DNA of 64,000 nucleotides from Eledone cirrhosa. Lineage: Eukaryota. Shown piece by piece: positions 3,891-43,930 of this stretch. Below the pieces are notes generated by a model. That model had not been told where the DNA came from. It made no database searches and worked only from the letters and a program-made list of their open reading frames with translations. Location: assembly GCA_964016885.1 (NCBI GenBank), contig CAXHJY010000967.1:1-64000 (forward strand), in the 5' to 3' direction. The position numbers and the translations under genes were made by a program. Position 1 is the stretch's first letter. Each line of letters begins with the position of its first letter.

Positions 3891-6308
3891 GAGGAACAGT
3901 GGGAATTCCTGAAAGCTAACCTGCTGAAGGCGGCAGATGAAGTCTGTGGCTGGAGCAGGCCTATAGGTAGGAGGAGAGTAACGTGGTGGTGGAACAGTAA
4001 GATGGAGGAGTCAATTAAGGCTAAAAAGCAGGCTTGGAAAGTATGGCGGAATGGAGGAAGTAGAGAAGACTATCAAGTGGCCAGGAGGGAAGCTAGGAGA
4101 CAAGTGTACTTCGCAAGAAGGGAAGCAGAGGAAAGAAAGCATGTTCTACAACGCGAGGACCAAAAACGTGAGGTGTTCAGGATTACTAGGCAATGTGTCA
4201 AGGAAAACCGTGCTATTGTCGGAGAGAAGTGTGTCCTTAATGATGATGGTGTACTTGCCATCACTGACGCTGATAAGAAGGTAGCTTGGAAGTGTCACTA
4301 CGAAAGGCTACTAAATGAGGAGAATAAATGGGTTTCTCCCATTTATTCTTCTCATTGGGGGACAGTCTCCTTTGGAAATAGTTGCTGAAATGCTGAAAGC
4401 ATCTGGAACGGTGGGACACCCTATGGTCACCCGGATAGTAAACCAAGTCATACAGAATGGGGTCGTTCCGAAGGACTGGCGTAGCAGCATCATCATTAAC
4501 TGCTAAATGAGATGCCCTAGATAAAGGTAACTATAGAGGCATTAAATTAATCGACCAGGTCATGAAGGTCAGAGAAAAAGTAATAGCGCAACTAATCAGA
4601 GAGTGAATTGATCTAGATGAAATGCAGTTCAGGTTTGTGTCAGGTAAAAGTACCACAGACGCTCTTTTCATTGTACGACAGCTACAGGAGAAGTAGCTAG
4701 CTAAAAGTAAACCCCTATACTTAGCTTTTGTTGACTTGGAGAAAGCTTTGACAGACTCCCCCGCTCCATTATCTGGTGGGCTCTTAGAAAACTAGGTGTT
4801 GATGAATGGCTTGTGAGAGCTATACAAGCCATGTATAAAGAAACAGTAAGCAAGGTTAGAATTAACAACGAATATAGTGAAGAGTTTAGCGTAAAGGTTG
4901 GTGTTCATCAGGACTCTGTCCTTAGCCCCCTCCTATTTATTATTGCCCTTCAGGCTATAACAGAGGAGTTTAAGACCGGCTGCCCATGGGAACTCCTATA
5001 CGCAGATGATCTAATACTCATAGCTTAATCAATGGCCGAACTAGAGAAGAAATTCCAAACATGGAAGAATGGCCTAGAATCAAAAGGCCTTAAAATTAAC
5101 CTGTCTAAGACTAAAGTTCTAGTTTGTAGGAAGGAAAATAGGGCACCAGTCCCATCTGGGAAATGGCCATGCTCAGTGTGTAGGAAAGGAGTAGGTAGAA
5201 ACTCCATTTTATGTCCCAAATGCAAAGTATGGGTGGATAAAAGTTGTAGTGGGATCACAGGTAAGCTAACTAAGAATATAGATTTTATATGTGGCCGGTG
5301 CTCTGGTGCAATAAGTAGCAGCAAGTGCCCACAGAATACTAGCTCATTCCATTGCACAGATGGTTCTATAGAAATAGTGGACACCTTCTGTTACCTGGGT
5401 GACAAAATCAGCAGTGGTGGAGGGTGCTCCGAAAGTACAGTAGCTAGAGTCAGAACGGGATGGAAAAAGTTCAGAGAGCTTATACCACTATTGGCCGCTA
5501 AAGGGTTCTCACTAAAAATGAAAGGCAGGCTGTATGATGCCTGCATACGAACAGCAATGTTGCATGGCAGTGAGATCTGGGCATTGTGTGCAGAGGATAT
5601 ACGCAGACTGGAGAGGAACGAAGCTTGCATGCTCCGCTGGATGTGTAATAGTAATATACGTGAACGGCAAAGCATAAACAAACTAAGGGAGAAATTAGGA
5701 GTAAGAGGGATCAGATGCTGTTTACTCGAGAGAAGACTACGTTGGTACGGTCACGTGATGCGCATGAAAGACGACAGCTGTATAAAAAATTGCAGGGCAA
5801 TAAAAATAGACGGTAGCCAGAAAAACCTGGGACGACTTGCTAAATTCCGACCTCACACACATACACCTCTCCAAGACAATGTCACTGGACCGAGATCTTT
5901 GGCGCTACACGGTAATACAGAAGACCCGCCTTGCCTAAGTACAAAGCGAAACCTACAGTCAGTAGGCACCTCTAACAAAAATACACCCCGGCCCCACTAC
6001 CTCCACCACCCCTTCCAATGTAATGTTATGTTGGTACCACAGCATCCAGTCCGAAACAAATAAGGGCGTGTAGGTGTCACGACAAAAAAACACAACAGTC
6101 CACGCTGTAATGTGGCCATGTAGGTAACACGGTAAAAACTTTCCAGTCCACACTGTAAACGTGGTTGGTGTTAGGAAGGGCATCCAGCCGTAGAAAACCC
6201 GCTAGAGAGTCTTATACGAGCAAGACAACTAATTTTGCCTCAAGTGAGAAAATTCCGTCCAAACCCATGCTAGCGTGGAAGATGGACGTTAAACGATGAT
6301 GATGATGA
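3891..6308 (+). mobile_element. 5'-truncated, degenerate RTE LINE (same family as 631-2498, opposite orientation)
   Basis: ORF pieces 3858-4388 (TWWWN motif), 4813-5028 (YADD), 5032-6063 (PHD, RRLRWYGHV); stops and frameshifts; (GAT)n tail at ~6295-6308. Confidence 0.9.
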
Positions 6309-12823: not shown

Positions 12824-12835
12824 GCCGAAATAGCT
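12824..12835 (-). promoter_or_regulatory. Primer-binding site complementary to tRNA-Phe nt 1-12 (copies 22817-22828, 32857-32868)
   Basis: Plus strand GCCGAAATAGCT abuts the 5' LTR and equals the recalled 5' end of metazoan tRNA-Phe(GAA). Confidence 0.75.
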
Positions 12836-14119: not shown

Positions 14120-14407
14120 TGTGGGTATGGTGTGGCGTGCGGGGGGAGGGGGGTGCTCGACCGGAAGGGGTTTTGGAGTGCTCGACCGGAAGGGGTCTTT
14201 TTGACCGGAAGGATGCTCGACCGGAAGGGCCAGGAGAGGGCCTCTCTCTAGTGGTGACCAGCATACGGTGAGGACGCGTTTTGGGCAGCTCCCGGTTTTA
14301 AGCAGTCGGACGCACGTGGAAGAGGAGTACCTGCAGTGGAATTTAGCGGCGCCTGTGAAAAGCGGTAAGTGAGATAGCTTTTTCTAACCACAAGCTATTT
14401 CGGCGAC

Positions 14408-14441
<34 letters not shown>

Positions 14442-16279
14442 AAACACTTGCCGCAAAACAAATCAGAAGATGGCGACAAGACTACGGATGAACGAAGCTA
14501 TCAGGCCATTCACCGGGGAAGGTGATGTTGTCGCTTGGCTGCGGAAGGTTCGGCTGGTCGCGGGCTTGCAGAAGATAGAAGACGTGGCCGGTCTCATTGC
14601 ATTGTACCTCGAGGGCGACGCGTTGGTACTCTTCCTTGAGTTGGACGAGCACAGCCAAAGAGATGTGCAGAAGATTGAGAGGCGTCTGATGGATGCATTC
14701 GCCGAGGGGCCGTTGGCGGCTTTTGCTAAGCTGGCGAGAATCAGGTGGAATGGTGAGCGCGTCGACATTTTCGCAGCGGAAATAAGGCGGTTGGCTATGT
14801 TGGCGGGATACCAGGCAGAATGCGAACGCACGGTGCGGTTGGCATTCATCAATGGATTCCCGGACGACATAGCGGTGAAACTGCAGCAAGTCCCGGGGTA
14901 CAAGGAGATGGAAATGCGTTCACTGGTGGAACAAGCCCGGATCATAGCGGAAGATGCCAAAAAGAGTGTCGCGGCGATAGCGACTACGGAGGCTCAGGAC
15001 ACCTGGCAGCGAAATGGTCAAAGGGAGGCAACCTCGGCACGCGGCCGTTCGCGAGAATTTAAGGGCCGCTGTTTTAGGTGTCAGGGCCCGCATATAGCTA
15101 GAGACTGTAGAGAGTCGAAGCCGGATATAATCTGCTACCGGTGTAAGCGACCAGGCCACATCGCTACTAACTGCGACCAGGGAAACAGTCCAAGGGGAAC
15201 TACTGCGCCGGTAGTTGCCCCTTACGAGTAGCGGCGCTGCCGGTGGTGGAAGTCTTCGTGAGGGGGAAGCCACAGCGAGCCCTCGTGGATACGGGCTGTA
15301 CGACGACACTGGTGACCGCGGGGGTGGCGCAGAGGTGGGGAGGTAAGGGCAGTCGACGGCAGGAAAATTGAATGCCGAGGTCGCAGCGAGATGGAAATAG
15401 CGGTACGGGGAAGGACGATAAGGCTTTCCGCCATCGTGGTAGACAGTGTGGTGGATGGGATCGGCGTGGTTATGGGCATGGACGCGATTGGCCGTCTAGG
15501 GGGCGTCACGGTGAACAATGTCGGTGTGTCGTTTGGAGCCGCTGCATCGGTATGCGCTGTGAGTGCACGTCATGAGAACCAGAAGGCCACGAGGGGCAAT
15601 ACCCCGCTTACACTGTACAGGACAAGGACTTCAAGGCCGTGTTTGATGGGCAGCGATGGGTTGTTGAGTGGTACTGGAAGGGAGAACCACCAACACTGAA
15701 GACCAAAGTGGGCTGCTATCAACACACATTGAAGGGAAACGCTAGGGGCGAGAAGTAGAGAGATGGATCGAAGAGGGCATACTGCTTCCCTGGAAGGAGG
15801 AGGTGAAGTGCGGAGTATTGCCGTTGATGGCGGTGGTGCAACCCACGAAGAGCAAGGTGAGGCCGGTGCTGGACTACCGAGAGCTGAACGAGCACGTGTC
15901 ATGCCACACGGGTGGCGAGGTCACGGATGTCTGTGGGGAAACCCTGCGTGAGTGGAGACGCATGACGGGGGGCTCAGCGATCGTGGATCTAAAGTCAGCT
16001 TACTTGCAGTTGCATATAGATGAGAAGCTCTGGCGGTATCAGCTGGTCAGGTATAAGGGCCGGACATATTGCCTGACCAGGCTCGGTTTCGGGCTGAGCT
16101 CCGCACCGAAGATCATGGTGGCGGTCCTCAAGACCTCTCTGGGGAGGGCCGACAAGATAAAGAGGGCTACTAACTCCTACATTGACGACATCCTAGTGGA
16201 CGAGTCGGTGGTGTCGACGGCGGAGGTCACGAGCCATTTGCGGAGGTATGGACTGACTGCGAAGCCATCAGAAGCATTG
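14120..16279 (+). mobile_element. LTR retrotransposon B, copy 1, truncated within RT at the array junction
   Basis: 5' LTR 14120-14392, PBS 14393-14404, gag 14470-15231, frameshifted protease, RT up to YIDD..KPSEAL. Confidence 0.92.
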
Positions 16280-21800: not shown

Positions 21801-23041
21801 CCTGCCGTCGACTGCCCTTACGCTGCTCTTCCCTCTCCACCTCTGCGCCACCCCCGCGGTCACCAGTGTCGTCGTACAGCCCGTATCCACGCGGGCTCGC
21901 TGTGGCTTTCCCCTCACGAAGACTTCCACCACGGGCAGCGCCTTGACTCGTAAGGGGCAACTACCGGCGCAGTAGTTCCCCTTGGATCGTTTCCCTGGTC
22001 GCAGTTAATAGCGATGTGGCCTGGTCGCTTACACCGGTAGCATATTATTTCCGGCCTTGACTCTCTGCAGTCTCTAGCCATGTGCGGGCTCTGGCACCGA
22101 AAACAGCGACCTCTAAACGTTCGCGGGCGACCGCGCGCCGTGGTTGCCTCCCTTTCACCATTTCGCTGCCAGCTATCTTGAGCCTCTGTAGTTGCTATCA
22201 CCGCAACACTCTTTTTGGCATCTTCTGCTTTGATCCGGGCTTGTTCCACCAGTGAACGCATTTCCATTTCTTTGTAACCCGGGACTTGCTGCAGTTTCAT
22301 CGCTATGTCGTCTGGAAATCCATTTATGAACGCCAACCGCACCGTGCGTTCGCATTCCACCTGATATCCAGCCAACATAGCCAATCGCCGTATTTCCGCT
22401 GCGAAAATGTCAACGCGTTCACCGTTCCATCTAATTCTTGCCAGCTTAGCGAAAGTGGCTAACGGTCCCTCTGCGAACGATTCTATCATGCGCCTCTCAA
22501 TCATTTGCGCATCACTTTGGCTGTGTTCGTCCAACTCAAGGAAGAGTACCAACGCGTCCCCCTCGAGGTACAGTGCCATGAGGCCAGCCACATCTATCTT
22601 CTGCAAGCTTGCGACCAGCCGGACTTTTCGCAGCCAAGCGACAACATCACCTTCCCCGGTAAATGCCCTGATAGCTTCGCTTGTTCGTAGTCTTGTCGCC
22701 ATCTTCTAATTTGTCTTGCGGTACGTGATAAAAAAAAAACAACAGACTCCTCTCTGTTTTTCCAGTAGCCTTTTTTTTTTTTTTTTAAATTTTACAATCA
22801 GATCTCAGTTTCCAGTGCCGAAATAGCTTGTGGTTAGAAAAAGCTATCTCACTTACCGCTCTTCCACGTGCGTCCAACTCCTTAACACCGGGAGCTGCCA
22901 AAACTCGCGTCCACACCGTTGCTGATCACCACTAGAGAGGGCCATCTGCTGGCCCTTCCGGTCGAGCATCCTTCCGGCCAAGCACCCTTCCGGTTGAGCA
23001 CTCCCCCGCTTCCGGCCACCGCACGCCACACCATACCCACA
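18898..23041 (-). mobile_element. LTR retrotransposon A, copy 2
   Basis: Same structure and GGGCT TSD as copy 1. Confidence 0.95.
19356..21932 (-). pseudogene. pol: Pol (PR-RT-RNase H-IN) of A2, interrupted by TAG at 21306-21308 (A3: 29393-31969)
   Basis: VDTG protease, DLKSAY/YIDD RT, WCD..AEL..NRAD RNase H, D-D-E integrase; HHCC C-to-S change and 3' frameshift relative to B. Confidence 0.9.
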
Positions 23042-24112: not shown

Positions 24113-26269
24113 TGTGGGTATGGTGTGGCGTGCGGGGGGAGGGGGGTGCTCGACCGGAAGGGGTTTTGGAGTGCTCGACCGGAAGGGGTCTTTTTGACCG
24201 GAAGGATGCTCGACCGGAAGGGCCAGGAGAGGGCCTCTCTCTAGTGGTGACCAGCATACGGTGAGGACGCGTTTTGGGCAGCTCCCGGTTTTAAGCAGTC
24301 GGACGCACGTGGAATAGGAGTACCTGCAGTGGAATTTAGCGGCGCCTGTGAAAAGCGGTAAGTGAGATAGCTTTTTCTAACCACAAGCTATTTCGGCGAC
24401 TGTAAAAAAAAAAAAAAAAAAAAAAAAAAGAAAACACTTGCCGCAAAACAAATCAGAAGATGGCGACAAGACTACGGATGAACGAAGCTATCAGGCCATT
24501 CACCGGGGAAGGTGATGTTGTCGCTTGGCTGCGGAAGGTTCGGCTGGTCGCGGGCTTGCAGAAGATAGAAGACGTGGCCGGTCTCATTGCATTGTACCTC
24601 GAGGGCGACGCGTTGGTACTCTTCCTTGAGTTGGACGAGCACAGCCAAAGAGATGTGCAGAAGATTGAGAGGCGTCTGATGGATGCATTCGCCGAGGGAC
24701 CGTTGGCGGCTTTTGCTAAGCTGGCAAGAATCAGGTGGAATGGTGAGCGCGTTGACATTTTCGCAGCGGAAATAAGGCGGTTGGCTATGTTGGCGGGATA
24801 CCAGGCAGAATGCGAACGCACGGTGCGGTTGGCATTCATCAATGGATTCCCGGACGACATAGCGGTGAAACTGCAGCAAGTCCCGGGGTACAAGGAGATG
24901 GAAATGCGTTCACTGGTGGAACAAGCCCGGATCATAGCGGAAGATGCCAAAAAGAGTGTCGCGGCGATAGCGACTACGGAGGCTCAGGACACCTGGCAGC
25001 GAAATGGTCAAAGGGAGGCAACCTCGGCACGCGGCCGTTCGCGAGAATTTAAGGGCCGCTGTTTTAGGTGTCAGGGCCCGCATATAGCTAGAGACTGTAG
25101 AGAGTCGAAGCCGGATATAATCTGCTACCGGTGTAAGCGACCAGGCCACATCGCTACTAACTGCGACCAGGGAAACGGTCCAAGGGGAACTACTGCGCCG
25201 GTAGTTGCCCCTTACGAGTAGCGGCGCTGCCGGTGGTGGAAGTCTTCGTGAGGGGGAAGCCACAGCGAGCCCTCGTGGATACGGGCTGTACGACGACACT
25301 GGTGACCGCGGGGGTGGCGCAGAGGTGGGGAGGTAAGGGCAGTCGACGGCAGGAAAATTGAATGCCGAGGTCGCAGCGAGATGGAAATAGCGGTACGGGG
25401 AAGGACGATAAGGCTTTCCGCCATCGTGGTAGACAGTGTGGTGGATGGGATCGGCGTGGTTATGGGCATGGACGCGATTGGCCGTCTAGGGGGCGTCACG
25501 GTGAACAATGTCGGTGTGTCGTTTGGAGCCGCTGCATCGGTATGCGCTGTGAGTGCACGTCATGAGAACCAGAAGGCCACGAGGGGCAATACCCCGCTTA
25601 CACTGTACAGGACAAGGACTTCAAGGCCGTGTTTGATGGGCAGCGATGGGTTGTTGAGTGGTACTGGAAGGGAGAACCACCAACACTGAAGACCAAAGTG
25701 GGCTGCTATCAACACACATTGAAGGGAAACGCTAGGGGCGAGAAGTAGAGAGATGGATCGAAGAGGGCATACTGCTTCCCTGGAAGGAGGAGGTGAAGTG
25801 CGGAGTATTGCCGTTGATGGCGGTGGTGCAACCCACGAAGAGCAAGGTGAGGCCGGTGCTGGACTACCGAGAGCTGAACGAGCACGTGTCATGCCACACG
25901 GGTGGCGAGGTCACGGATGTCTGTGGGGAAACCCTGCGTGAGTGGAGACGCATGACGGGGGGCTCAGCGATCGTGGATCTAAAGTCGGCTTACTTGCAGT
26001 TGCATATAGATGAGAAGCTCTGGCGGTATCAGCTGGTCAGGTATAAGGGCCGGACATATTGCCTGACCAGGCTCGGTTTCGGGCTGAGCTCCGCACCGAA
26101 GATCATGGTGGCGGTCCTCAAGACCTCTCTGGGGAGGGCCGACAAGATAAAGAGGGCTACTAACTCCTACATTGACGACATCCTAGTGGACGAGTCGGTG
26201 GTGTCGACGGCGGAGGTCACGAGCCATTTGCGGAGGTATGGACTGACTGCGAAGCCATCAGAAGCATTG
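24113..26269 (+). mobile_element. LTR retrotransposon B, copy 2, truncated within RT
   Basis: As B1; PBS 24386-24397; gag 24460-25221. Confidence 0.92.
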
Positions 26270-28934: not shown

Positions 28935-31900
28935 TGTGGTTAGAAAAAGCTATCTCACTTACCGCTTTTCATAGGCGCCGCTAAATTCCACTGCTGGTCT
29001 CTCCTCTTCCACGTGCGTCCAACTCCTTAACACCAGGAGCTGCCAAAACTCGCGTCTACACCGTTGCTGGTCACCACTAGAGAGGGCCATCTGCTGGCCC
29101 TTCCGGCCAAGCACCCTTCCGGTTGAGCACTCCCCCGCTTCCGGCCACCGCACGCCACACCATACCCACACGCCTCCCTGATCTCAAGGATCAATTTCCC
29201 CCTCGTCCTTCTCCATATGAAAGTCTGCTGTCCAGGTTGGTGGTTTACGACTTCTTTGCGATCTCCGCAGTGTTGGGGCAGCACTTTCGGTTTCCTCTTC
29301 CTCGGAGTCCGTTGAAACAGTGATTCTACAGACATCCAGGACATGACGTGGTACTCCGTCCATGGACACATTGTTCTGGGAATTTACGGCCGTCACCGTT
29401 CCCCTTCCCCATTGAGATGTACAACGTGCATCTGGGGGCTTACCCAGACTTCTTCGCCCACCTGCACGAATGCACTCTCTCTCCCCACTGGCCGTTGTGG
29501 TGGCGTGCACGGGTGCCACCACTCGTATCTGAATACTGCTCTGTGTGGCACCGATTCCTCGACCTGTCTCACCCGAGGGGACATGTTGTACCAGAACACT
29601 GCCTCCATTGGTGAGATATGGCCCCGCTCCACCATTGCCTTGATCGTCCGGTGGTGTCGCTCCACAATTCCATTCCCGCTCGGCCTGTGCGCTGCTCTGA
29701 AGAAACGGTCGACCTTCCATCCATCGAGCATCTCCCTCAGCGCCTCCGAGCGGAACGCTGCGCTGTTGTCCATTAGCAGTTCGTCCACAGGGCCCCGCTC
29801 CAAGAACACCTCTCTCAACGTCCGCATGATTTCCTCGGCCGTTCCAGTCATCATCTCCCTCCATATCGCCATCCGTCCTGGTCCACAGTCGACCATCGAG
29901 AGGTACGTTCCCTGTCGGTAGTGCGTTACATCCACCGCCAATCGCTTCCAGTCGCGATCCACCGGGAGGCTTCCCGTTTCGTGTACACCCGGGGCGGGAT
30001 CAATGGACTGACTTCGGACGCAGCCTCTAACCACCCTTTGAACACTGTGTCTGTTAACGTCCGAGTCGATTCTCCTGGCTAGGAACAGGCTCCTATCCAC
30101 TCCCATGTGGTGCATGTCATGCAACCCTTTCAGATCCGACTCGGTCAGCCGACACACGGCAGCTATCTCATCTTCTACCTCCTCCGGCGCTTCCATCCAG
30201 GCTTTCTTCACCCTAGTTAAGATGTCCGCCCTATTTTTCTCTGAGAGCACGAAAACTACGCTCAGCCTCAGGTCGAACTCGGTGGCCAGCTCTCCTAAAG
30301 TTCCCAGGCGGCGCTTTATCAGCATCTCCGCCGGCCCTCTCGTTCGCACTCTCTTTTCACTGGTGAGCACTGATCTCACCCATCCGAGTACAGTAGCCGA
30401 GTTGGTGCGTATCTCGATGGTGCGCAGTCCCCACCTCAGGGCGAGGTTCACCCCTCTCAACACTGCGTCCAGTTCGGCCACATTGATGTGGTTGCAGTCG
30501 TCCTTCTTCCTAAGCCAGGCTGCATCCTCGACCTCAACACCTCTTATCTCCAACGTGACACCCAGCGCTATGCTGCTGACATCACACCATACGGTCCCGC
30601 TCTGCGATTTGGGAACGTACCAGCGTCCCCGCACTGGGTCGTCGGCCTTCACCCTCCCCACGATCTCCTGCATCATGGCCACCGTCCTCTCTCCCACTCT
30701 GTCACTCCAAGTCACTCCTCCCGCTCGTCTCTTGACATAGCTGCATGCCGTCCGGAGCCACCCAGCAATAGGGTAGTGACCCACCAACTTTCCACACACC
30801 GAGAAAAGCTCCCGCCTACTCATACTTGGGTCCAGTTCTGGAACTTCATTTCCCCTCTGGAATACCAAGACGCCCGTCCTGTCTCGCCGTAGCCTAAGTC
30901 CCAGCGCGGCTCCTCCCTCTAACGCTTCTGACGGCTTCGCAGCCAGTCCATACTCCTGTAAATGGCTCGTGACCTCCGCCGCCGACACCACAGACTCGTC
31001 CACTAGGATGTCGTCAATATAGGAGTTAGTGGCCCGCTTCATCTTGTCGGCCTTTCCCAGAATGGTCTTGAGGACCGCCACCATGATCTTCGGTGCGGAG
31101 CTCAGCCCGAAACCGAGCCTGGTCAGGCAATATGTCCGGCCCTTATACCTGACCAGCTGATACTGCCAGAGCTTCTCATCTATATGCAATTGCAAGTATG
31201 CCGACTTTAGATCTACGATTGCTGAACTCCCCGTCATGAGTCTCCACTCACGCAGGGTTTCCCCACAGACATCCGTGACCTCGCCACCCGTGTGGCATGA
31301 CACGTGCTCGTTCATCTCCCGAAAGTCCAGCACCAGCCTCACCTAGTTCTTCGTGGGTTGCGCCACCGCCATTAACGGCAATACTCCGCACTTCACCTCC
31401 TCTTTCCAGGGAAGCAGTATGCCCTCCTCAATCCATCTCTCTACCTCTCGCTCGAACTCGCTCCTAATGTTTCCCTTCAATGTGTGTTGATAGCAGCCCT
31501 CTTTGGTCTTCAGTGTTGGTGGTTCTCCCTTCCAGTACCACTCAACAACCCATCGCTGCCCATCGAACACGGCCTTGAAGTCTTTGTCCTGCACAATGTA
31601 AGCGGGGTATTTCTCCTCGTGGGCCTTCTGGTTCTCCTGTCGCGCGCATACCGATGCAGCGGCGCCAAACCACACACCGACGTTGTTCACTGTGACGCCC
31701 CCTAGACGGCCAATCGCGTCCATGCCCATAACCACGCCGATCCCCCCCACCACGCTGTCTACTACGATGGCAGAAAGCCTTATTTTCCTTCTCTGTACCG
31801 CTATTTCCATCTCGCTGCGACCTCGGCATTCAATTTTCCTGCCGTCGACTGCCCTTACGCTGCTCTTCCCTCTCCACCTCTGCGCCACCCCCGCGGTCAC

Positions 31901-33081
31901 CAGTGTCGTCGTACAGCCCGTATCCACGCGGGCTCGCTGTGGCTTTCCCCTCACGAAGACTTCCACCACGGGCAGCGCCTTGACTCGTAAGGGGCAACTA
32001 CCGGCGCAGTAGTTCCCCTTGGATCGTTTCCCTGGTCGCAGTTAATAGCGATGTGGCCTGGTCGCTTACACCGGTAGCATATTATTTCCGGCCTTGACTC
32101 TCTGCAGTCTCTAGCCATGTGCGGGCTCTGGCACCGAAAACAGCGACCTCTAAACGTTCGCGGGCGACCGCGCGCCGTGGTTGCCTCCCTTTCACCATTT
32201 CGCTGCCAGCTATCTTGAGCCTCTGTAGTTGCTATCACCGCAACACTCTTTTTGGCATCTTCTGCTTTGATCCGGGCTTGTTCCACCAGTGAACGCATTT
32301 CCATTTCTTTGTAACCCGGGACTTGCTGCAGTTTCACCGCTATGTCGTCTGGAAATCCATTTATGAACGCCAACCGCACCGTGCGTTCGCATTCCACCTG
32401 ATATCCAGCCAACATAGCCAATCGCCGTATTTCCGCTGCGAAAATGTCAACGCGTTCACCGTTCCATCTAATTCTTGCCAGCTTAGCGAAAGTGGCTAAC
32501 GGTCCCTCTGCGAACGATTCTATCATGCGCCTCTCAATCATTTGCGCATCTCTTTGGCTGTGTTCGTCCAACTCAAGGAAGAGTACCAACGCGTCCCCCT
32601 CGAGGTACAGTGCCATGAGGCCAGCCACATCTTCTATCTTCTGCAAGCTTGCGACCAGCCGGACTTTTCGCAGCCAAGCGACAACATCACCTTCCCCGGT
32701 AAATGCCCTGATAGCTTCGCTTGTTCGTAGTCTTGTCGCCATCTTCTAATTTGTCTTGCGGTACGTGATAAAAAAAAAAACAACAGACTCCTCTCTGTTT
32801 TTCCAGTAGCCTTTTTTTTTTTTTTTAAATTTTTCAATCAGATCTCAGTTTCCAGTGCCGAAATAGCTTGTGGTTAGAAAAAGCTATCTCACTTACCGCT
32901 CTTCCACGTGCGTCCAACTCCTTAACACCGGGAGCTGCCAAAACTCGCGTCCACACCGTTGCTGATCACCACTAGAGAGGGCCATCTGCTGGCCCTTCCG
33001 GTCGAGCATCCTTCCGGCCAAGCACCCTTCCGGTTGAGCACTCCCCCGCTTCCGGCCACCGCACGCCACACCATACCCACA
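28935..33081 (-). mobile_element. LTR retrotransposon A, copy 3
   Basis: Same structure and GGGCT TSD as copy 1. Confidence 0.95.
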
Positions 33082-33752: not shown

Positions 33753-34152
33753 CCTCTCACAGTATTACAGTTTTGGTGGTCTTATTCGTGCAAGTCACCA
33801 ATTTGGTACTTTGTCAAACCCGCGAAAACTAGGTTTTTTTAGAAGCAGCCTTTACTAGCCTCATCATACTACATCACTGCGTTATGAGAGTTTACTTAGG
33901 AGCTGTAGCGAGCTACTTTCCTTTGGCGCATTGATAGGCTATTCGTGCATGATTTGGCTAAGTCAGGCCAATCGTGAGCCGCGCACGGATATGTATTTTC
34001 AACTTCCGCCTAAACTGAGACTTTCCCGCTACTTTCAATAAACTCTATCTCTTGAAGCTTTGATCGTGGAAAGGTAAACAACCATTTTTCTTTTGCCGTG
34101 AACCATTGGCCAATATGTAACACCACAGCATAACCACGGACCTGGTTAACAC
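33753..34152 (+). repeat. 400-bp direct repeat flanking element B (partner 38365-38764)
   Basis: CCTCTCACAG..GGTTAACAC lies immediately before the 5' LTR and immediately after the 3' LTR. Confidence 0.92.
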
Positions 34153-34425
34153 TGTGGGTATGGTGTGGCGTGCGGGGGGAGGGGGGTGCTCGACCGGAAG
34201 GGGTTTTTGAGTGCTCGACCGGAAGGGGTCTTTTTGACCGGAAGGATGCTCGACCGGAAGGGCCAGGAGAGGGCCTCTCTCTAGTGGTGACCAGCATACG
34301 GTGAGGACGCGTTTTGGGCAGCTCCCGGTTTTAAGCAGTCGGACGCACGTGGAAGAGGAGTACCTGCAGTGGAATTTAGCGGCGCCTGTGAAAAGCGGTA
34401 AGTGAGATAGCTTTTTCTAACCACA

Positions 34426-34437
34426 AGCTATTTCGGC
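34426..34437 (+). promoter_or_regulatory. Primer-binding site AGCTATTTCGGC, complementary to tRNA-Phe nt 1-12
   Basis: Directly follows the terminal CA of the 5' LTR; identical in A and B, which diverge right after it. Confidence 0.75.
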
Positions 34438-34499
34438 GACTGTAAAAAAAAAAAAAAAAAAAAAAAAAAGAAAACACTTGCCGCAAAACAAATCAGAAG

Positions 34500-35261
34500 A
34501 TGGCGACAAGACTACGGATGAACGAAGCTATCAGGCCATTCACCGGGGAAGGTGATGTTGTCGCTTGGCTGCGGAAGGTTCGGCTGGTCGCGGGCTTGCA
34601 GAAGATAGAAGACGTGGCCGGTCTCATTGCATTGTACCTCGAGGGCGACGCGTTGGTACTCTTCCTTGAGTTGGACGAGCACAGCCAAAGAGATGTGCAG
34701 AAGATTGAGAGGCGTCTGATGGATGCATTCGCCGAGGGACCGTTGGCGGCTTTTGCTAAGCTGGCGAGAATCAGGTGGAATGGTGAGCGCGTCGACATTT
34801 TCGCAGCGGAAATAAGGCGGTTGGCTATGTTGGCGGGATACCAGGCAGAATGCGAACGCACGGTGCGGTTGGCATTCATCAATGGATTCCCGGACGACAT
34901 AGCGGTGAAACTGCAGCAAGTCCCGGGGTACAAGGAGATGGAAATGCGTTCACTGGTGGAACAAGCCCGGATCATAGCGGAAGATGCCAAAAAGAGTGTC
35001 GCGGCGATAGCGACTACGGAGGCTCAGGACACCTGGCAGCGAAATGGTCAAAGGGAGGCAACCTCGGCACGCGGCCGTTCGCGAGAATTTAAGGGCCGCT
35101 GTTTTAGGTGTCAGGGCCCGCATATAGCTAGAGACTGTAGAGAGTCGAAGCCGGATATAATCTGCTACCGGTGTAAGCGACCAGGCCACATCGCTACTAA
35201 CTGCGACCAGGGAAACGGTCCAAGGGGAACTACTGCGCCGGTAGTTGCCCCTTACGAGTAG
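34500..35261 (+). CDS. gag: Gag of element B (two CCHC knuckles)
   Basis: CFRCQGPHIARDC and CYRCKRPGHIATNC. Confidence 0.9.
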   Translation: MATRLRMNEAIRPFTGEGDVVAWLRKVRLVAGLQKIEDVAGLIALYLEGDALVLFLELDEHSQRDVQKIERRLMDAFAEGPLAAFAKLARIRWNGERVDIFAAEIRRLAMLAGYQAECERTVRLAFINGFPDDIAVKLQQVPGYKEMEMRSLVEQARIIAEDAKKSVAAIATTEAQDTWQRNGQREATSARGRSREFKGRCFRCQGPHIARDCRESKPDIICYRCKRPGHIATNCDQGNGPRGTTAPVVAPYE

Positions 35262-35267
35262 CGGCGC
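35210..35267 (+). promoter_or_regulatory. -1 ribosomal frameshift signal (G GGA AAC plus H-type pseudoknot)
   Basis: Slippery heptamer 35210-35216; 7-nt spacer; stem GGGGAACTAC/GTAGTTGCCCC; loop GCGCCG pairs with CGGCGC 35262-35267; the -1 frame reads into LVDTGC protease. Confidence 0.85.
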
Positions 35268-35832
35268 TGCCGGTGGTGGAAGTCTTCGTGAGGGGGAAGC
35301 CACAGCGAGCCCTCGTGGATACGGGCTGTACGACGACACTGGTGACCGCGGGGGTGGCGCAGAGGTGGGGAGGTAAGGGCAGTCGACGGCAGGAAAATTG
35401 AATGCCGAGGTCGCAGCGAGATGGAAATAGCGGTACGGGGAAGGACGATAAGGCTTTCCGCCATCGTGGTAGACAGTGTGGTGGATGGGATCGGCGTGGT
35501 TATGGGCATGGACGCGATTGGCCGTCTAGGGGGCGTCACGGTGAACAATGTCGGTGTGTCGTTTGGAGCCGCTGCATCGGTATGCGCTGTGAGTGCACGT
35601 CATGAGAACCAGAAGGCCACGAGGGGCAATACCCCGCTTACACTGTACAGGACAAGGACTTCAAGGCCGTGTTTGATGGGCAGCGATGGGTTGTTGAGTG
35701 GTACTGGAAGGGAGAACCACCAACACTGAAGACCAAAGTGGGCTGCTATCAACACACATTGAAGGGAAACGCTAGGGGCGAGAAGTAGAGAGATGGATCG
35801 AAGAGGGCATACTGCTTCCCTGGAAGGAGGAG

Positions 35833-38064
35833 GTGAAGTGCGGAGTATTGCCGTTGATGGCGGTGGTGCAACCCACGAAGAGCAAGGTGAGGCCGGTGCT
35901 GGACTACCGAGAGCTGAACGAGCACGTGTCATGCCACACGGGTGGCGAGGTCACGGATGTCTGTGGGGAAACCCTGCGTGAGTGGAGACGCATGACGGGG
36001 GGCTCAGCGATCGTGGATCTAAAGTCGGCTTACTTGCAGTTGCATATAGATGAGAAGCTCTGGCGGTATCAGCTGGTCAGGTATAAGGGCCGGACATATT
36101 GCCTGACCAGGCTCGGTTTCGGGCTGAGCTCTGCACCGAAGATCATGGTGGCGGTCCTCAAGACCTCTCTGGGGAGGGCCGACAAGATAAAGAGGGCTAC
36201 TAACTCCTACATTGACGACATCCTAGTGGACGAGTCGGTGGTGTCGACGGCGGAGGTCACGAGCCATTTGAGGAGGTATGGACTGACTGCGAAGCCATCA
36301 GAAGCATTGGAGGGAGGAGCCGCGCTGGGACTTAGGCTACGGCGAGACAAGACGGGCGTTTTGGTGTTCCAGAGGGGAAACGAAGTTCCGGAACTGGGCC
36401 CAAGTATGAATATGCGGGAGCTTTTCTCGGTGTGTGGAAAGCTGGTGGGTCACTACCCGATCGCTGGGTGGCTCCGGACGGCATGCAGCTATATCAAGAG
36501 ACGAGCGGGAGGGGTGACTTGGAGTGACAGAGTGGGAGAGAGAACGGTGGCCATGATGCAGGAGATCGTGGGGAGGGTGAAGGCCGACGACCCAGTGCGG
36601 GGACGCTGGTACGTTCCCAAATCACGGAGCGGGACCGTATGGTGTGATGTCAGCAGCATAGCGCTGGGTCTCACGTTGGAGATAGGAGGTGTTGAGGTCG
36701 AGGATGCAGCCTGGCTTAGAAAGAAGGACGACTGCAGCCACATCAATGTGGCCGAGCTGGACGCGGTGTTGAGAGGGGTGAACCTCGCCCTGCGGTGGGG
36801 GATGCGCACCATCGAGATACGCACCGACTCGGCTACCGTACTCGGATGGGTAAGATCAGTGCTCACCAGTGAGAAGAGAGTGCGAACGAGAGGCGCGGCG
36901 GAGATGCTGAAAAAGCGCTGCCTGGGAACGTTAGGAGAGCTGGCCACCGAGTTCGACCTGAAGCTGAGCGTAGTGTTCGTGCCTTCAGAGAAAAATAGGG
37001 CGGACATCTTAACTAGAGTGAAGAAAGCCTGGATGGAAGCGCCGGAGGAGGTAGAGGATGAGATAGCTGCCGTGTGTCGGTTGACCGAGTTAGACCTGAA
37101 GGGGTTGCATGACATGCACCACATGGGGGTGGATAGGAGCCTGTTCCTAGCCAGGAGAATCGACTCGGACGTTAGCAGACACAGTGTTCGGGGGGTGGTT
37201 AGAGGCTGCGTCCGATGTCAGTCCATTGATCCCGCCCCGGGTGTACACGAAACGGGAAGCCTCCCGGTGGATCGCGACTGGAAGCGATTGGCGGTGGATG
37301 TGACGCACTACCGGCAGGGAACGTACCTCTCGATGGTCGACTGTGGACCGGGTCGAATGGCGATATGGAGGGAGATGAAGACTGGAACGGCCGAGGAAAT
37401 CGTGCGGACGTTGAGAGAGGTGTTCCTGGAGCGGGGCCCTGTGGATGAACTGCTGATGGACAACAGCGCAGCATTCCGCTTGGAGGCACTGAGGGGGATG
37501 CTCGATGGATGGAAGGTGGACCGTTTCTTCAGAGCGGCGCACAGGCCGAGCGGGAATGGAATCGTGGAGCGACACCACCGGACGATCAAGGCAATGGCGG
37601 AGCGGGGCCATATCTCACCAATGGAGGCAGTGTTCTGGTACAATATGTCCCCTCGGGTTGGACAGGTCGAGGAATCGGTGCCACACAGAGCAGTATTCAA
37701 ATACGAGTGGCGGCACCCGTGCACGCCACCACAACGGCCAGTGGGGAGAGAGAGTGTATTCGTGCAGGTGGGCGAAGAAGTCTGGGTTAAGCCCCCAGAT
37801 TCACGGTGCACATCTCAATGGGGAAGGGGAACGGTGACGGCCGTAAATTCAAAGAACAATGTGTCCGTGGACGGGGTACCACGTCATGTCCTGGATGTAA
37901 GAAGAATCACTGTATCGACGGACTCCGAGGAAGAGGAAACCCAAGATGAGGTGGAAACCCAGAGCCCTGCCCCAATACTACGAAGATTGCAACGAAGTCG
38001 TAGACCACCGACCTGGACGGCAGACTTTCATATGCAGAGGGACGAGGGGGAAATTGATCCTTGA
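35833..38064 (+). CDS. pol: Pol RT-RNase H-integrase of B (open; upstream protease region frameshifted)
   Basis: YIDD; WCD/AEL/TDS/NRAD; H..H..CVRC; VDV..MDN..VER. Confidence 0.92.
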   Translation: MKCGVLPLMAVVQPTKSKVRPVLDYRELNEHVSCHTGGEVTDVCGETLREWRRMTGGSAIVDLKSAYLQLHIDEKLWRYQLVRYKGRTYCLTRLGFGLSSAPKIMVAVLKTSLGRADKIKRATNSYIDDILVDESVVSTAEVTSHLRRYGLTAKPSEALEGGAALGLRLRRDKTGVLVFQRGNEVPELGPSMNMRELFSVCGKLVGHYPIAGWLRTACSYIKRRAGGVTWSDRVGERTVAMMQEIVGRVKADDPVRGRWYVPKSRSGTVWCDVSSIALGLTLEIGGVEVEDAAWLRKKDDCSHINVAELDAVLRGVNLALRWGMRTIEIRTDSATVLGWVRSVLTSEKRVRTRGAAEMLKKRCLGTLGELATEFDLKLSVVFVPSEKNRADILTRVKKAWMEAPEEVEDEIAAVCRLTELDLKGLHDMHHMGVDRSLFLARRIDSDVSRHSVRGVVRGCVRCQSIDPAPGVHETGSLPVDRDWKRLAVDVTHYRQGTYLSMVDCGPGRMAIWREMKTGTAEEIVRTLREVFLERGPVDELLMDNSAAFRLEALRGMLDGWKVDRFFRAAHRPSGNGIVERHHRTIKAMAERGHISPMEAVFWYNMSPRVGQVEESVPHRAVFKYEWRHPCTPPQRPVGRESVFVQVGEEVWVKPPDSRCTSQWGRGTVTAVNSKNNVSVDGVPRHVLDVRRITVSTDSEEEETQDEVETQSPAPILRRLQRSRRPPTWTADFHMQRDEGEIDP

Positions 38065-39724
38065 GATCAGGGGGGCGTGTGGGTATGGTGTGGCGTGCGG
38101 TGGCCGGGGGGGGGGGGGGGGGGGGTGCTCGACCGGAAGGGGTTTTTGAGTGCTCGACCGGAAGGGGTCTTTTTGACCGGAAGGATGCTCGACCGGAAGG
38201 GCCAGGAGAGGGCCTCTCTCTAGTGGTGACCAGCATACGGTGAGGACGCGTTTTGGGCAGCTCCCGGTTTTAAGCAGTCGGACGCATGTGGAAGAGGAGT
38301 ACCTGCAGTGGAATTTAGCGGCGCCTGTGAAAAGCGGTAAGTGAGATAGCTTTTTCTAACCACACCTCTCACAGTATTACAGTTTTGGTGGTCTTATTCG
38401 TGCAAGTCACCAATTTGGTACTTTGTCAAACCCGCGAAAACTAGGTTTTTTTAGAAGCAGCCTTTACTCGCCTCATCATACTACATCACTGCGTTATGAG
38501 AGTTTACTTAGGAGCTGTAGCGAGCTACTTTCCTTTGGCGCATTGATAGGCTATTCGTGCATGATTTGGCTAAGTCAGGCCAATCGTGAGCCGCGCACGG
38601 ATATGTATTTTCAACTTCCGCCTAAACTGAGACTTTCCCGCTACTTTCAATAAACTCTATCTCTTGAAGCTTTGATCGTGGAAAGGTAAACAACCATTTT
38701 TCTTTTGCCGTGAACCATTGGCCAATATGTAACACCACAGCATAACCACGGACCTGGTTAACACCTCAGCCAATGGACCGTGTCTCATTAAAATCTTAAT
38801 TAGTTTGTTTCATTTGTTTTGGCATGCCAGCTCAACCTTTGTAAATAAATGATGTAAAAGACGTTGTAAAGTCTTGTGATGCTATTTACCACAGCCATTG
38901 TCTATTAATGTGATATGGAAAGATTCCTTCCAGTGTTATCACAGCAGCAACAGAACCTGAGACTTACAGCCAAACCTCAATTCAACTTACATTTATTGAT
39001 ATAACAAACCATACCTTTCCTGAACAACTAAACTGGTGACTATTAAATGCCTGCTATATTGGTGGCCTCTGTTAATACAAACAAACAAAAAATACAAATA
39101 TAAATCCAAATATATTATCATTTTATAACCTCCTAAAGTGGTGACCTGCCGTACAAAATAAAAATATTGCTAGAGAGCTACAGGTGTCACCCATTTCTCT
39201 ATCTCCCCTAGTAGTTTACCACTGTTGGTGGGGGATTCTTTATCCGCCTGGCAGCTGTCTGCTTATATTGCAACTAACCATCATATCTGGTGGCCATATT
39301 GCTATTGACCACCTGTGACCTGTTCTCTAGCCGAACAGGTCTGTTATGCCCCCCTCCCCCGGTTAAATCTATGCTAAGTGTCTGGCAAAGAGATTGTCGA
39401 GTCCAAGCTAGCTGATGACCAGTGCGGTTTTGCCCGGACGCTGCACAACCGACCAAATATTCACACTGCTGTAGGTCTTCGAGAAATCATGGGAGTATTG
39501 CCAAGAGGTATATTCTGGTTTTGTAGACCTTGAAAAGGCATATGACCACATTCCTCGGGACCTGTTGTGGAAGGTTCTGCAAGAGTATGGGATCGATGGT
39601 CAGCTTCTTGCAGCTCTGATGTTTCTATATGAATACACAAGTATTTGTGTTCGGATAAATGGTACTAAATCGAAACCATTTAATGTGAGAGTCGGATTCC
39701 GCCAAGAGTGTGTACTGTCACCTC

Positions 39725-41106: not shown

Positions 41107-43930
41107 AGGCTGGATTAAAACCCTTAGAGGCCCTAAGCACTAAAGAATTTTGTTGGCCCAATACATTTGTAGATCAAAACATAAACAATAATATATGGTA
41201 AATTAAAGTTTTATTTATTGAAATTTCAAAATAAAGCAAAACATACAGAAAGAGAGAAAATAATTTTATTTATTAAATAATTTTTTCCTGTTTTTTTTCT
41301 TGCAAAGTCTTTGATCAGATTCTCGTAACCAATCTTGCGTAACACATCTGCTTCTATACACAATAGGGATAAAGCATCCTGTATTGTTGCATGGTTGTTG
41401 TGAAGGAATTTTTAATATATTTCAACTGTGAAAATGAACGCTCTGCTGAGCAGTTAGTAACCAATAATGTTAAAAATATACGAAAGGCTATGTCTACATT
41501 TGGAAATGCACACTCAATATTGTCTTTTACAATAATTTTATAAAGTTTACCATGATTAAATCTTGTTTTTACATTTTCTGTTCTACTCATCTTATTTCGC
41601 ACATATAAATGAAACTGCTGAAGCTCAGCTGAGAAATTACTATTGAAGTCCTCTGGATAAGCATCGATCAACTTTTGACAGTACTGAGAATACCTTTCAA
41701 TATTAGTAGCTGATAAAGTGCCTATATTTGGCACATCACTAAGAAAAGAAAATTTCTCTGCCATTTCTTTGTATATCTCTACTCTTCTTTCCATCTCAGC
41801 TGCAAGTGTGTCAACAATTGTGTAAAATGTGGTGATACGAAACTTATCTCTGGCATCTAAATAAACTTCTGCTGTGTCTCCGTCATTGGGTACTTTTTTT
41901 CTAATACGTTTGCGAGTTGCAGTTGTCCTGTAATCAACATCTGGAAGAATTTCCTTGGCCTCTTTTTCATATCTTTTAAATTCATCTTGTGAGGTGTTCA
42001 GTTGGTCAGCTAATGATGCATAGATATCTGCACATGTCTTTAAGTTCGCATCCTCATTTTGTAGAACTTTGCTTACTCTGTGAAAATTCTGCAAAATCTC
42101 ATTCCAAAAAATCAACATAAAACGAATTCTAGCTCTTGCATCTTATCAACAATATTATTTGCCTCTCTTCTAGCGTCTCCCTTTTGTGATTGATCTTCGG
42201 CTATATATTCTAATGCCTCGGAAATCTCAAGCAACAATTTCAAGATTGTTGGTGTTGCCATAGCATGTGCTTCCTATCTTGCATCAGAGAGGGATTTCAA
42301 GACACATTCATTCTTAATACAATCTTTGAGAATTTTCCAACGGTTAGTGGAAGCGGAAAAAAAATTATGGAGTTACTGTACTGTAGAGAAAAAATTAACA
42401 GCCTCTTGAGAGCAGTCAACAGCACTCTGGCCAACAAGATTTAATGAATGAGCTGCACAGGGCACATATATAGCAAACTTGTTTGTTTCTAAAATTGTTT
42501 GCTGCATCTCCTTATAACGCCCAGACATGTTAGCAGCATTGTCATAAGTCTGACCCCTACATTTAACCCACAAGCTTCACGTAAATGCAGCAGCACCTGG
42601 TTCGCCATATTCTCGCCAGTGTGGTTTTCTATTATGATGAAGGTTAAAAATCGTTCAATAGGCTGTCCATCTTGTAAATACCTAAGTACAACACTCAATT
42701 GATCGCTATGTGATAAATCTGGTGTTGAATCAACGGACAAACTAAAATAACCAGAAGATTTAACTTCGTTAATAATGAACTCACGGAGTTGTTGTGCCAT
42801 TAGTTGAATAATTTCCTTGATAGTGGTTTTTGACATGTAAGAAGGATTTCCTTTTCCAGAATTTCCATATTTAGAAATGTGGCCTGCTAAAAATGGATCA
42901 AACTGGCTTATGAGTTCAAGCAGCCCTAAAAAATTCCCATTTTACAACGATCCAAACTTCTCTTCACTTCCTCGAAAAGGCAAGCCACGTTCAGCTAACG
43001 TACAAATAACAGCTACAACACGCCTCAAAACGTGTTCCCAGTAATTGCACTCTTCATGAATTTGTTTCTCCAAATCTGACTTTAACCCCGCACCTTGCCT
43101 GCGAGTTAAATATGCCTGCAAAGAGTCTCGGTGAATAATGCTTTTCTCATGTTTTTCAATTACAATAGTATTGTACCAATCACTGAACCCTTCTCTTGAA
43201 ACAAAAATTGAATTTTTTTCACGAGCAAACAGTTTACAAACAAAACAATAAACTCATCCTCTTGATGGTGAATAGAGTAACCACTCTCTCTTGTATTTTT
43301 CACCATTGGCTTTTGTCCCAATAAAAAGTTTCTGTGAGCAATACCTTACTGGTTTTCCACTACTAAAATGACGGCAAGACTTTTCAAATGGCCCGTTGTG
43401 GTGTTGACAAATACTGGGTTCACAAGTAATCCAATAAGCTATATCATTAGCAGAGAAATCAAGCCACATTCCTGGATCGTTCGGTAAATTGTAATTTTCT
43501 TCATTTTTTACAGGCAAATTAATTTCACCACCATTGTCACAGTGCTCTAAACTTCTATTTTCAGCAATTATTTGAGCCCTATCATCATTTGCAGTAGAGG
43601 TATCCGAATAAAGAGAATTCACAGGCAAAGTAAGATCAGTTGTGAAACATGTGCTGGATGAACATGCTTGCGACATCTCGATACTTCTAATGTCATCATA
43701 TTTTGATTCTGAAGTAATCAAAGTTGTATTTGCCGTCTGTTGTATTCATGTCTACTTCTGATAACGTATATCGGTTTTGACCTGGAATCTGTAAATCATG
43801 TTGTGGAACTTAGTCAGCTTTGCTGTCTTGCGATCTAATTCCGAAGCATTTTCTTCTTTCTTGTTTGAAGCTTTTGTTTTTGTGCTACATTTAACTGAAT
43901 GCGTTTTATCTTGGTTTTTGGGATCTGTTA
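41105..43930 (-). mobile_element. Degenerate hAT DNA transposon (ZMYM1-like transposase)
   Basis: WLLYS, LPFRG..GNFLGLLEL, DSTPDLSH.DQLS, GQTYDNAANMSG, CAAHSLNL and CSAERSFSQLK motifs; TIR-like CAAGGCTGGATT at 41105; second TIR not found. Confidence 0.85.

Follow-up and report, generated by a model that had tools for sequence, protein, structure and literature searches.

A candidate primer-binding site complementary to the 5' end of host tRNA-Phe in a widespread lineage of LTR retrotransposons

Passages of a broad survey distinguish three primer types for LTR elements: a whole tRNA, a half tRNA cut in the anticodon stem, and a self-primer (PMC6317226). The ICTV profiles (PMC8515867 is one of them) name the tRNA 3' end or a short tRNA segment as primer, and passages on Candida elements describe internal stretches of tRNA-Arg or iMet (PMC4139406). 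The geometry closest to the one described here is that of the Tf1/sushi group (S. pombe Tf1, Tj1, Tcn1 and plant TAR), in which a short site abutting the LTR (11 nt in Tf1) pairs with the very first nucleotides of an RNA. A 3'-OH then has to be generated by cutting that RNA where the duplex ends, and in Tf1 this is done by RNase H, as passages of PMC7175516, PMC4600332 and PMC6317226 describe; the cut falls between bases 11 and 12 of the 5'-terminal RNA paired to the primer-binding site (PBS) (PMC7175516).

Here we describe two LTR retrotransposons, A and B, from a window of 64,000 nt (the whole stretch of Eledone cirrhosa DNA that was analysed), together with their relatives in the host genome and elsewhere. 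Their PBS shares with the Tf1/sushi group its position against the LTR and its short length (12 nt). The two cases differ in that the partner here would be a host tRNA acting in trans and not the element's own transcript, in that 39 junctions hold no full self-complement, and in that a chromodomain was not reported by Pfam in the window frames and 14 homologues. Compared with the hemivirus-type elements (copia, Ty5, Osser and Bianca, and those of Candida), the common features are a putative primer that is a tRNA fragment without CCA, and a dispensable TGG (PMC8515867 and passages of PMC6317226 and PMC4139406); cleavage in our case would follow from the geometry. Whereas their fragment is an internal stretch ending in the anticodon stem, of tRNA-iMet or Ile in Pseudoviridae, the one proposed here is nt 1-12 of tRNA-Phe. 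Hemivirus-type priming was found only in Ty1/copia in passages of the plant survey, and the elements described here have their integrase after RT-RNase H, not before RT.

The sequence-only reading knew of no description of such a priming mode. In the full-text literature (a scope that leaves aside Repbase Reports and most subscription journals) we found no account of a tRNA nt 1-12 site, no such 12-mer used as a PBS and no mention of DUF7047. The term 'PBS' does not occur in the portions of the mollusc and annelid surveys that were covered (PMC6238403, PMC8556966). We consider it rather unlikely, but a real prospect, that the site has been described somewhere before. PBS finders that are restricted to tRNA 3' ends, as in passages of PMC6317226 and PMC13524379, would score this lineage as PBS-less, which may be why it has gone unnoticed. 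If the proposed priming is true, it would add a fourth primer type for LTR elements, linking two of the others by using the geometry of Tf1 on a tRNA that acts in trans. It would also suggest a route between tRNA priming and self-priming, supply a defined in vitro substrate for how retroelement RNase H cuts RNA-RNA duplexes, point to a source or use of very short 5' tRNA fragments, and imply that silencing through 3' tRNA fragments does not reach these elements.

Two elements in a threefold tandem repeat

The 12-mer is present without mismatch at all six coordinates, and on the strands, given by the sequence-only reading (Table 1), where 0.28 occurrences were expected with one mismatch allowed. 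Each copy stands directly 3' of ..AACCACA with zero spacer, and TGG is absent. The six 5' LTR/PBS sites are thus in place, but they are not independent. Window positions 6310-36309 form a threefold tandem repeat with a 10-kb unit and 99% identity, so that the six sites represent two independent elements, A on the minus strand and B on the plus strand. Every unit holds a whole element A, and B is cut off inside RT in units 1 and 2. The repeat could be either a recent duplication or an assembly artefact of a small contig. The statement that A and B share exactly these 12 nt proved too strong: their LTRs are about 90% alike and the final 30 LTR letters are identical, leaving a sharp boundary on the downstream side only. 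The window by itself is therefore weak evidence, and the strong evidence comes from outside it.

Table 1 Coordinates of the two elements and of their putative primer-binding sites in the window
Feature	Position	Strand	Remark
5' LTR of element B (unit 3), TGTGG..CCACA, 273 nt	34153..34425	+	94% match to 38078-38364
PBS of B (unit 3), exact complement of host tRNA-Phe nt 1-12, zero spacer	34426..34437	+	putative primer site, sequence match
U5 stretch pairing with PBS letters 1-10 (two G-U pairs); PBS-closing hairpin in part of the host's lineage	34403..34412	+	predicted fold
U5 arm of predicted U5-leader stem; also reads as splice-donor consensus	34395..34403	+	predicted fold
Leader arm of predicted U5-leader stem	34476..34484	+	predicted fold
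gag of B with CCHC zinc knuckle	34500..35261	+	
Protease region and RT start of B, frame-broken in the unit-3 copy	35262..35775	+	DTG motif visible; protease family matches on the A copy
Open frame of B: RT, DUF7047, RNase H, DDE integrase	35776..38064	+	
Polypurine tract of B	38069..38077	+	
3' LTR of B	38078..38364	+	
Whole element B (unit 3)	34153-38364	+	
5' LTR of element A (unit 3), 213 nt	32869..33081	-	
PBS of A (unit 3), 12-mer identical to that of B	32857..32868	-	
Whole element A (unit 3)	28935..33081	-	5-bp target-site duplication; 3' LTR 29170-28935
PBS of A, tandem unit 1	12824..12835	-	
PBS of A, tandem unit 2	22817..22828	-	
PBS of B, tandem unit 1	14393..14404	+	element cut off near 16278
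PBS of B, tandem unit 2	24386..24397	+	element cut off near 26268

In place of a 5-bp duplication, element B has on either side one copy of a 400-bp direct repeat (33753-34152 and 38365-38764, 99.75% identical), and its two LTRs differ by an indel. The 400-bp repeat could have arisen by recombination between two insertions 400 bp apart. Elsewhere in the window, positions 1025-2569, 5029-6063 and 41354-42142 contain two related copies of a non-LTR-type RT that carries a PHD finger, and part of a hAT transposase.

The site in the host genome and in other hosts

Host tRNA-Phe genes called by ARAGORN (L021, L137, L138 and L139) begin exactly GCCGAAATAGCT, in agreement with the start of tRNA-Phe(GAA) given in the sequence-only reading. 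There are 212 tRNA-Phe-type genes in the host, and among the 100 listed, 99 start with the exact complement of the 12-mer. At the LTR side, tRNA nt 13 is a C that lies opposite the last A of the LTR, so the pairing stops at nt 12. At the other side, position -1 is A in 12/12 host tRNA-Phe genes read, and a T at PBS position 13, which would pair with it, is present in only 5 of 40 junctions; the match thus ends at the mature 5' end of the tRNA. Most of the host tRNA-Phe genes are located in a big tandem array of tRNA-Phe and tRNA-Asn with a unit of about 1.26 kb (G000:C4, near 117.37-117.58 Mb; L139-L147).

The host genome (G000, 3.0 Gb) contains 853 matches to the PBS complement, compared with 24 for controls, and 527 LTR-end junctions (CA followed by the 12-mer), compared with 1 for the control. 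The first 30 of the 853 matches comprise 25 LTR-end junctions, one tRNA-Phe(GAA) gene whose start coincides with that of the match, and 4 chance-like occurrences. A sample blind to the motif was drawn from 150 host copies found through their RNase H; it comprised 40 copies, namely the 20 that follow those of the window itself and the final 20. The LTR end is in place in 32 of these, the retrieved stretch of the other 8 being without one, and it is followed by the exact site in 28/32 and by a site with one substitution in 4/32. Host families with very different LTRs (L010, L015, L025 and L029) also retain the 12-mer. LTR-PBS-LTR junctions number 0 in the host genome. Contigs from four public runs of one study, compared with the LTR of A, showed 16 variable LTR places and 0 in the PBS, but also 0 in the adjacent end of U5, which makes the comparison uninformative.

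A metagenome scan yielded 75 loci of the lineage, with best segments 31-59% identical. The start of gag is present in 36 of them; one has no upstream DNA, and the PBS directly follows the LTR end in the other 35/35. Three further junctions lie near contig ends, which gives 38 of the 75 loci. Sorted by letters 7-9 of the site, these 38 junctions read TTT (13), CGC (11), CAC (5), CCC (4) or CCG (1), and 4 are imperfect (L095 with two changes, L108 and L109 each one letter short, and L111 with one change); the junction of L153 is without the CA. Contaminant contigs in prokaryote assemblies carry the site in five of six cases (three TTT from one tandem unit, one CAC and one CCG). Junctions were called by their likeness to the site in the window, and the gag-anchored count indicates that none was missed. 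Across 40 non-redundant junctions, conservation of 95-100% holds for the preceding ACA and for ten of the twelve columns of the PBS. Columns 7-8 are variable, and beyond column 12 conservation is lost, the top letter of the free column 13 reaching 50%.

Read as RNA, the complements of the five perfect variants all take the form G-C-C-x-x-x-A followed by UAGCU. At nt 8-12, UAGCU is tRNA-wide. The letters that change correspond to positions 4-6 of the acceptor stem and those for nt 8-12 stay untouched, which is the pattern that tRNA structure predicts for a site paired with a tRNA 5' end. Comparison of RT homologues across species, which had been suggested as a check, thus shows a 12-mer that is kept, with changes confined to acceptor-stem positions.

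In a tree of Pol from 39 elements (without L157, which is too short, and without near-identical duplicates), at least 11 changes of variant are needed, and sister elements joined with good support carry different ones (L094 versus L103; L089 versus L071 and L105; L093 versus L066, L072 and L090). Pairs of elements from the same assembly share a variant in 15 of 18 cases against 5.1 expected (p 5e-5), unrelated lineages included; the pairs are few, some are sister elements, and one joins two assemblies of one numbered series (14/17 without it). One assembly in this comparison carries two variants. That the site follows the host tRNA, as these sequences would suggest, is proven for one host only. 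In G000, variant junctions are at chance level (4, compared with 8 for the control, and 3 of the 4 are not at LTRs), and none of 3 matches to a variant 12-mer is the start of a tRNA gene. No tRNA-Phe was found in 30 of 84 matches plus 4 more regions in the three prokaryote assemblies with contaminating element contigs. Searches of published texts for the variant 12-mers returned three irrelevant matches only, and the supplement of PMC13524379 contains the common Phe end only.

Several individual loci deserve separate mention. The variant sites at L122:690-701 and L153:372-383 are candidates for a primer switch: their complement presumably opens tRNA-Lys(UUU) in some animals and tRNA-Phe in enteric bacteria, and a tRNA start matching it was absent from G000. 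tRNA-His was considered as partner of the CAC variant and rejected: its acceptor stem fits, but we take its nt 9-12 not to match. Candidate sites in L134, L135, L086 and L067 were rejected or set aside, having no gag behind them or lying at a contig end. The site at L095:1149-1160, two changes away from the CGC variant, has a direct near-copy about 70 nt upstream within the LTR. A eukaryotic 25-kb contig in a bacterial assembly (G002:C16; L155, L156, L158 and L204) consists of a tandem 8.15-kb unit with the element, and also holds two PBS junctions and two tRNA-Ser(TGA) genes; G001 and G003 contain element contigs too. L092:1845-1930 is a tRNA-like stretch with a T-loop-like motif in the leader directly 3' of the PBS, called neither by ARAGORN nor by Rfam.

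A proposed primer from the first 12 nt of tRNA-Phe

The feature is real, lineage-wide and sharply bounded, and on the sequence comparisons above the explanation that suits it best is a primer made of the 12 5'-terminal nt of a host tRNA. The proposal of a 5' tRNA-Phe fragment of about 12 nt agrees with the position of the site, with the match in the host and with conservation that ends at tRNA nt 1. The 5' end of a host tRNA is very probably the primer. In the scheme that we favour, nt 1-12 of the tRNA would pair with the 12 letters after the CA of the LTR, a pairing potential seen in the sequence, with nt 12 opposite the first letter and nt 13 unpaired. The Gag nucleocapsid would help the element RNA to invade the acceptor and D stems, and the RT-RNase H of the element would then cut the tRNA at or next to the 12/13 bond, by analogy with Tf1, leaving a 3'-OH at the LTR edge from which RT would extend the primer through U5. 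Plus-strand synthesis may subsequently copy the short primer to its 5' end, thereby rewriting the PBS from the host tRNA. Taken together, and with the cut made by the RNase H of the element itself, these steps are in our view on balance probable.

Rewriting would explain a site that follows the host and also its repeated changes, which selection alone could explain too. Passages of PMC7472051 describe copying of the primer into the PBS for retroviruses and its absence in Ty1 and Ty3, so this step is not general. With nt 1-12 paired and a 3'-OH needed at the LTR edge, the tRNA must either be cut at about the 12/13 bond or be extended from a 2'-OH. PBS letters 1-2 are paired with the tRNA even if the primer stops short of them, and the true primer end could therefore be anywhere from nt 10 to nt 12; five polypurine-tract junctions, in which a 2-nt overhang at the ends is neither indicated nor excluded, allow a primer end at nt 10, 11 or 12.

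Cutting in trans by the element is favoured by three observations taken together: the RNase H precedent of Tf1, the four acidic catalytic residues of RNase H, which are invariant in 41/41 homologues, and the in vitro cleavage of double-stranded RNA that passages of PMC9719913 describe for an archaeal RNase HI whose fold type fits best. Among lone RNases H, the modelled domain fits archaeal-type RNase HI best (Z 17.2, 14.7 and 14.6), a likeness that on this model shows fold, not activity. The alternative with the best standing, which we consider unlikely, keeps the same primer and has a host nuclease make the 12-nt fragment, which would be packaged ready-made. All of the sequence evidence for cutting by the element fits this as well, and in copia-type elements the primer is a tRNA cleaved within its anticodon stem (passages of PMC6317226). 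The energetics bear on the point as well: invasion of the whole tRNA is only marginally favourable (a duplex of -18.7 kcal/mol set against about 10 for opening the tRNA and 6 for opening element B, calculated for unmodified RNA and ignoring the tertiary fold), and a free 12-mer would pair at -18.7 to -23.5 kcal/mol with no unfolding of the tRNA needed. However, the cut would lie inside the D stem and the length is constant in all sampled hosts, which suits a ruler set by the element better than host nucleases. Described 5' tRNA fragments are, moreover, mostly 14 nt or longer.

The other way of starting at the LTR edge would leave the tRNA whole, with RT starting from the 2'-OH of nt 12 or of a neighbour to give a branched RNA-DNA, as in retrons, where priming is 2'-5'. 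Such branching requires no nuclease and predicts an identical sequence pattern. To our knowledge no LTR-type RT primes from a 2'-OH, and our RT model fits LTR-type enzymes (Z 21-22 for MMLV, CaMV, Ty3 and foamy virus) and retron RTs poorly (Z about 8). We judge it improbable, and give the same low weight to a site that does not serve priming at all and instead captures tRNA-Phe or its fragments, with a use in packaging, dimerisation or regulation, or binds the 3' end of another conserved small RNA, priming then being achieved by other means. The primer site is known here from sequence comparison alone, and about 90 of the 853 host matches are left once the 527 junctions, the 212 tRNA genes and about 24 chance matches are accounted for, both of which would be compatible with such a role. 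Against it, no other primer site is seen: TGG stands at the junction in 0/40 cases, and A and B have no other complement to tRNA-Phe of at least 9 letters, CCA end included. A pairing that ends precisely at the LTR boundary is, furthermore, needed by a primer only.

Self-priming from within the LTR was considered on the basis of its stretch GAGATAGCT. Up to 700 nt upstream of 39 junctions, no full self-complement of the PBS is present (some contigs may lack the whole LTR), the best case reaching 9/12 Watson-Crick pairs. Runs of 10-11 pairs with G-U allowed occur in 5/39 junctions, and 34/39 are without a run of 10. Four of the five belong to the host's lineage (A, B, L163 and L160), where the complement lies in U5, 12-14 nt from the LTR end. 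A run of 10 is missing from host families L159 and L162, which keep the 12-mer nonetheless. In part of the host's lineage the U5 stretch forms a predicted hairpin that closes the PBS, which is the lowest-energy fold in three of four window-like cases, and an alternative U5-leader fold that leaves the site open costs 3-9 kcal/mol in host families. A U5-leader stem has a role in Tf1, and one is predicted here too. The hairpin stretch lies too close to the LTR end, and some families lack it while keeping the site, so that it does not read as a primer; the predicted fold may instead act as a switch for primer loading. Tf1-type self-priming from 34403-34412 with an incidental tRNA match is thus most improbable, since the imperfect stretch is found in part of the host's lineage only and leaves no room for R and U5, no element carries a full self-complement, and the 12/12 match to a host tRNA would have no reason. 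The U5 of several host families (window 34395-34403; L159, L160 and L164) keeps a GTAAGT resembling a splice donor some 25 nt upstream of the LTR end, which is paired with the leader in predicted folds.

Proteins and relatives of the elements

The gene order begins with gag, whose product has a CCHC knuckle, and continues through protease, RT, DUF7047, RNase H and DDE integrase (Pfam; window frames and 14 homologues). As in Metaviridae, the LTRs are bounded by TG..CA, target-site duplications are present (5 bp, exact in four of six host copies and with one mismatch in the other two), and a polypurine tract precedes the 3' LTR. These features, the PR-RT-RH-IN order included, are shared with Ty3/Gypsy. 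The elements differ from that group in having no PBS for a tRNA 3' end, in an RT with only a weak RVT_1 match, in an RNase H that matches RVT_3 and RNase_H, the Ty3-type RT_RNaseH family not being reported by Pfam in the same frames and homologues, and in an integrase whose nearest solved relatives by sequence are retroviral. The model of RT-RNase H (pLDDT 91.7) gives near-tied scores for MMLV (Z 22.3), CaMV (21.9), Ty3 (21.4) and foamy virus (21.2). A Foldseek search with the whole Pol model returned nearly exclusively entries for HIV-1 RT, with low TM-scores.

Numerous homologues share 55-70% identity (593 of 8000 candidates scored), among them named ones from Argonauta, Oratosquilla, Petrolisthes and Aplysia. 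Trichuris suis has more distant ones, as does Sycon ciliatum within a sister group. No relatives of the element were found in the viral collection, where five tRNA-like matches are Thr and Val tRNAs and uninformative. Judged by these sequences, this is a deep and widespread lineage of LTR retrotransposons of the type gag-PR-RT-RNase H-IN, with DUF7047 as a marker, that we do not assign to a named clade. Saci-2/lennie was considered and set apart by description only, passages of PMC12471100 giving 4-bp duplications and Leu, Gly and Lys primers there. Passages on the Trichoplax Tag clade (PMC2871265) and on the elements in PMC2774666 make no mention of primer sites.

A broader picture, which we offer tentatively and with some doubt, would be that of an old lineage reaching from sponges to molluscs, crustaceans and nematodes, whose RT-RNase H clips the first 12 nt off tRNA-Phe and whose PBS is re-templated each round. 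Such a lineage would be retuned to new hosts, some of its branches may have switched to another tRNA, and its RT and RNase H may be distant enough for it to rank beside Ty3/Gypsy as a separate group. The members of the sister group (P0219, P0222, P0229 and P0236) have DUF7047 and a longer integrase.
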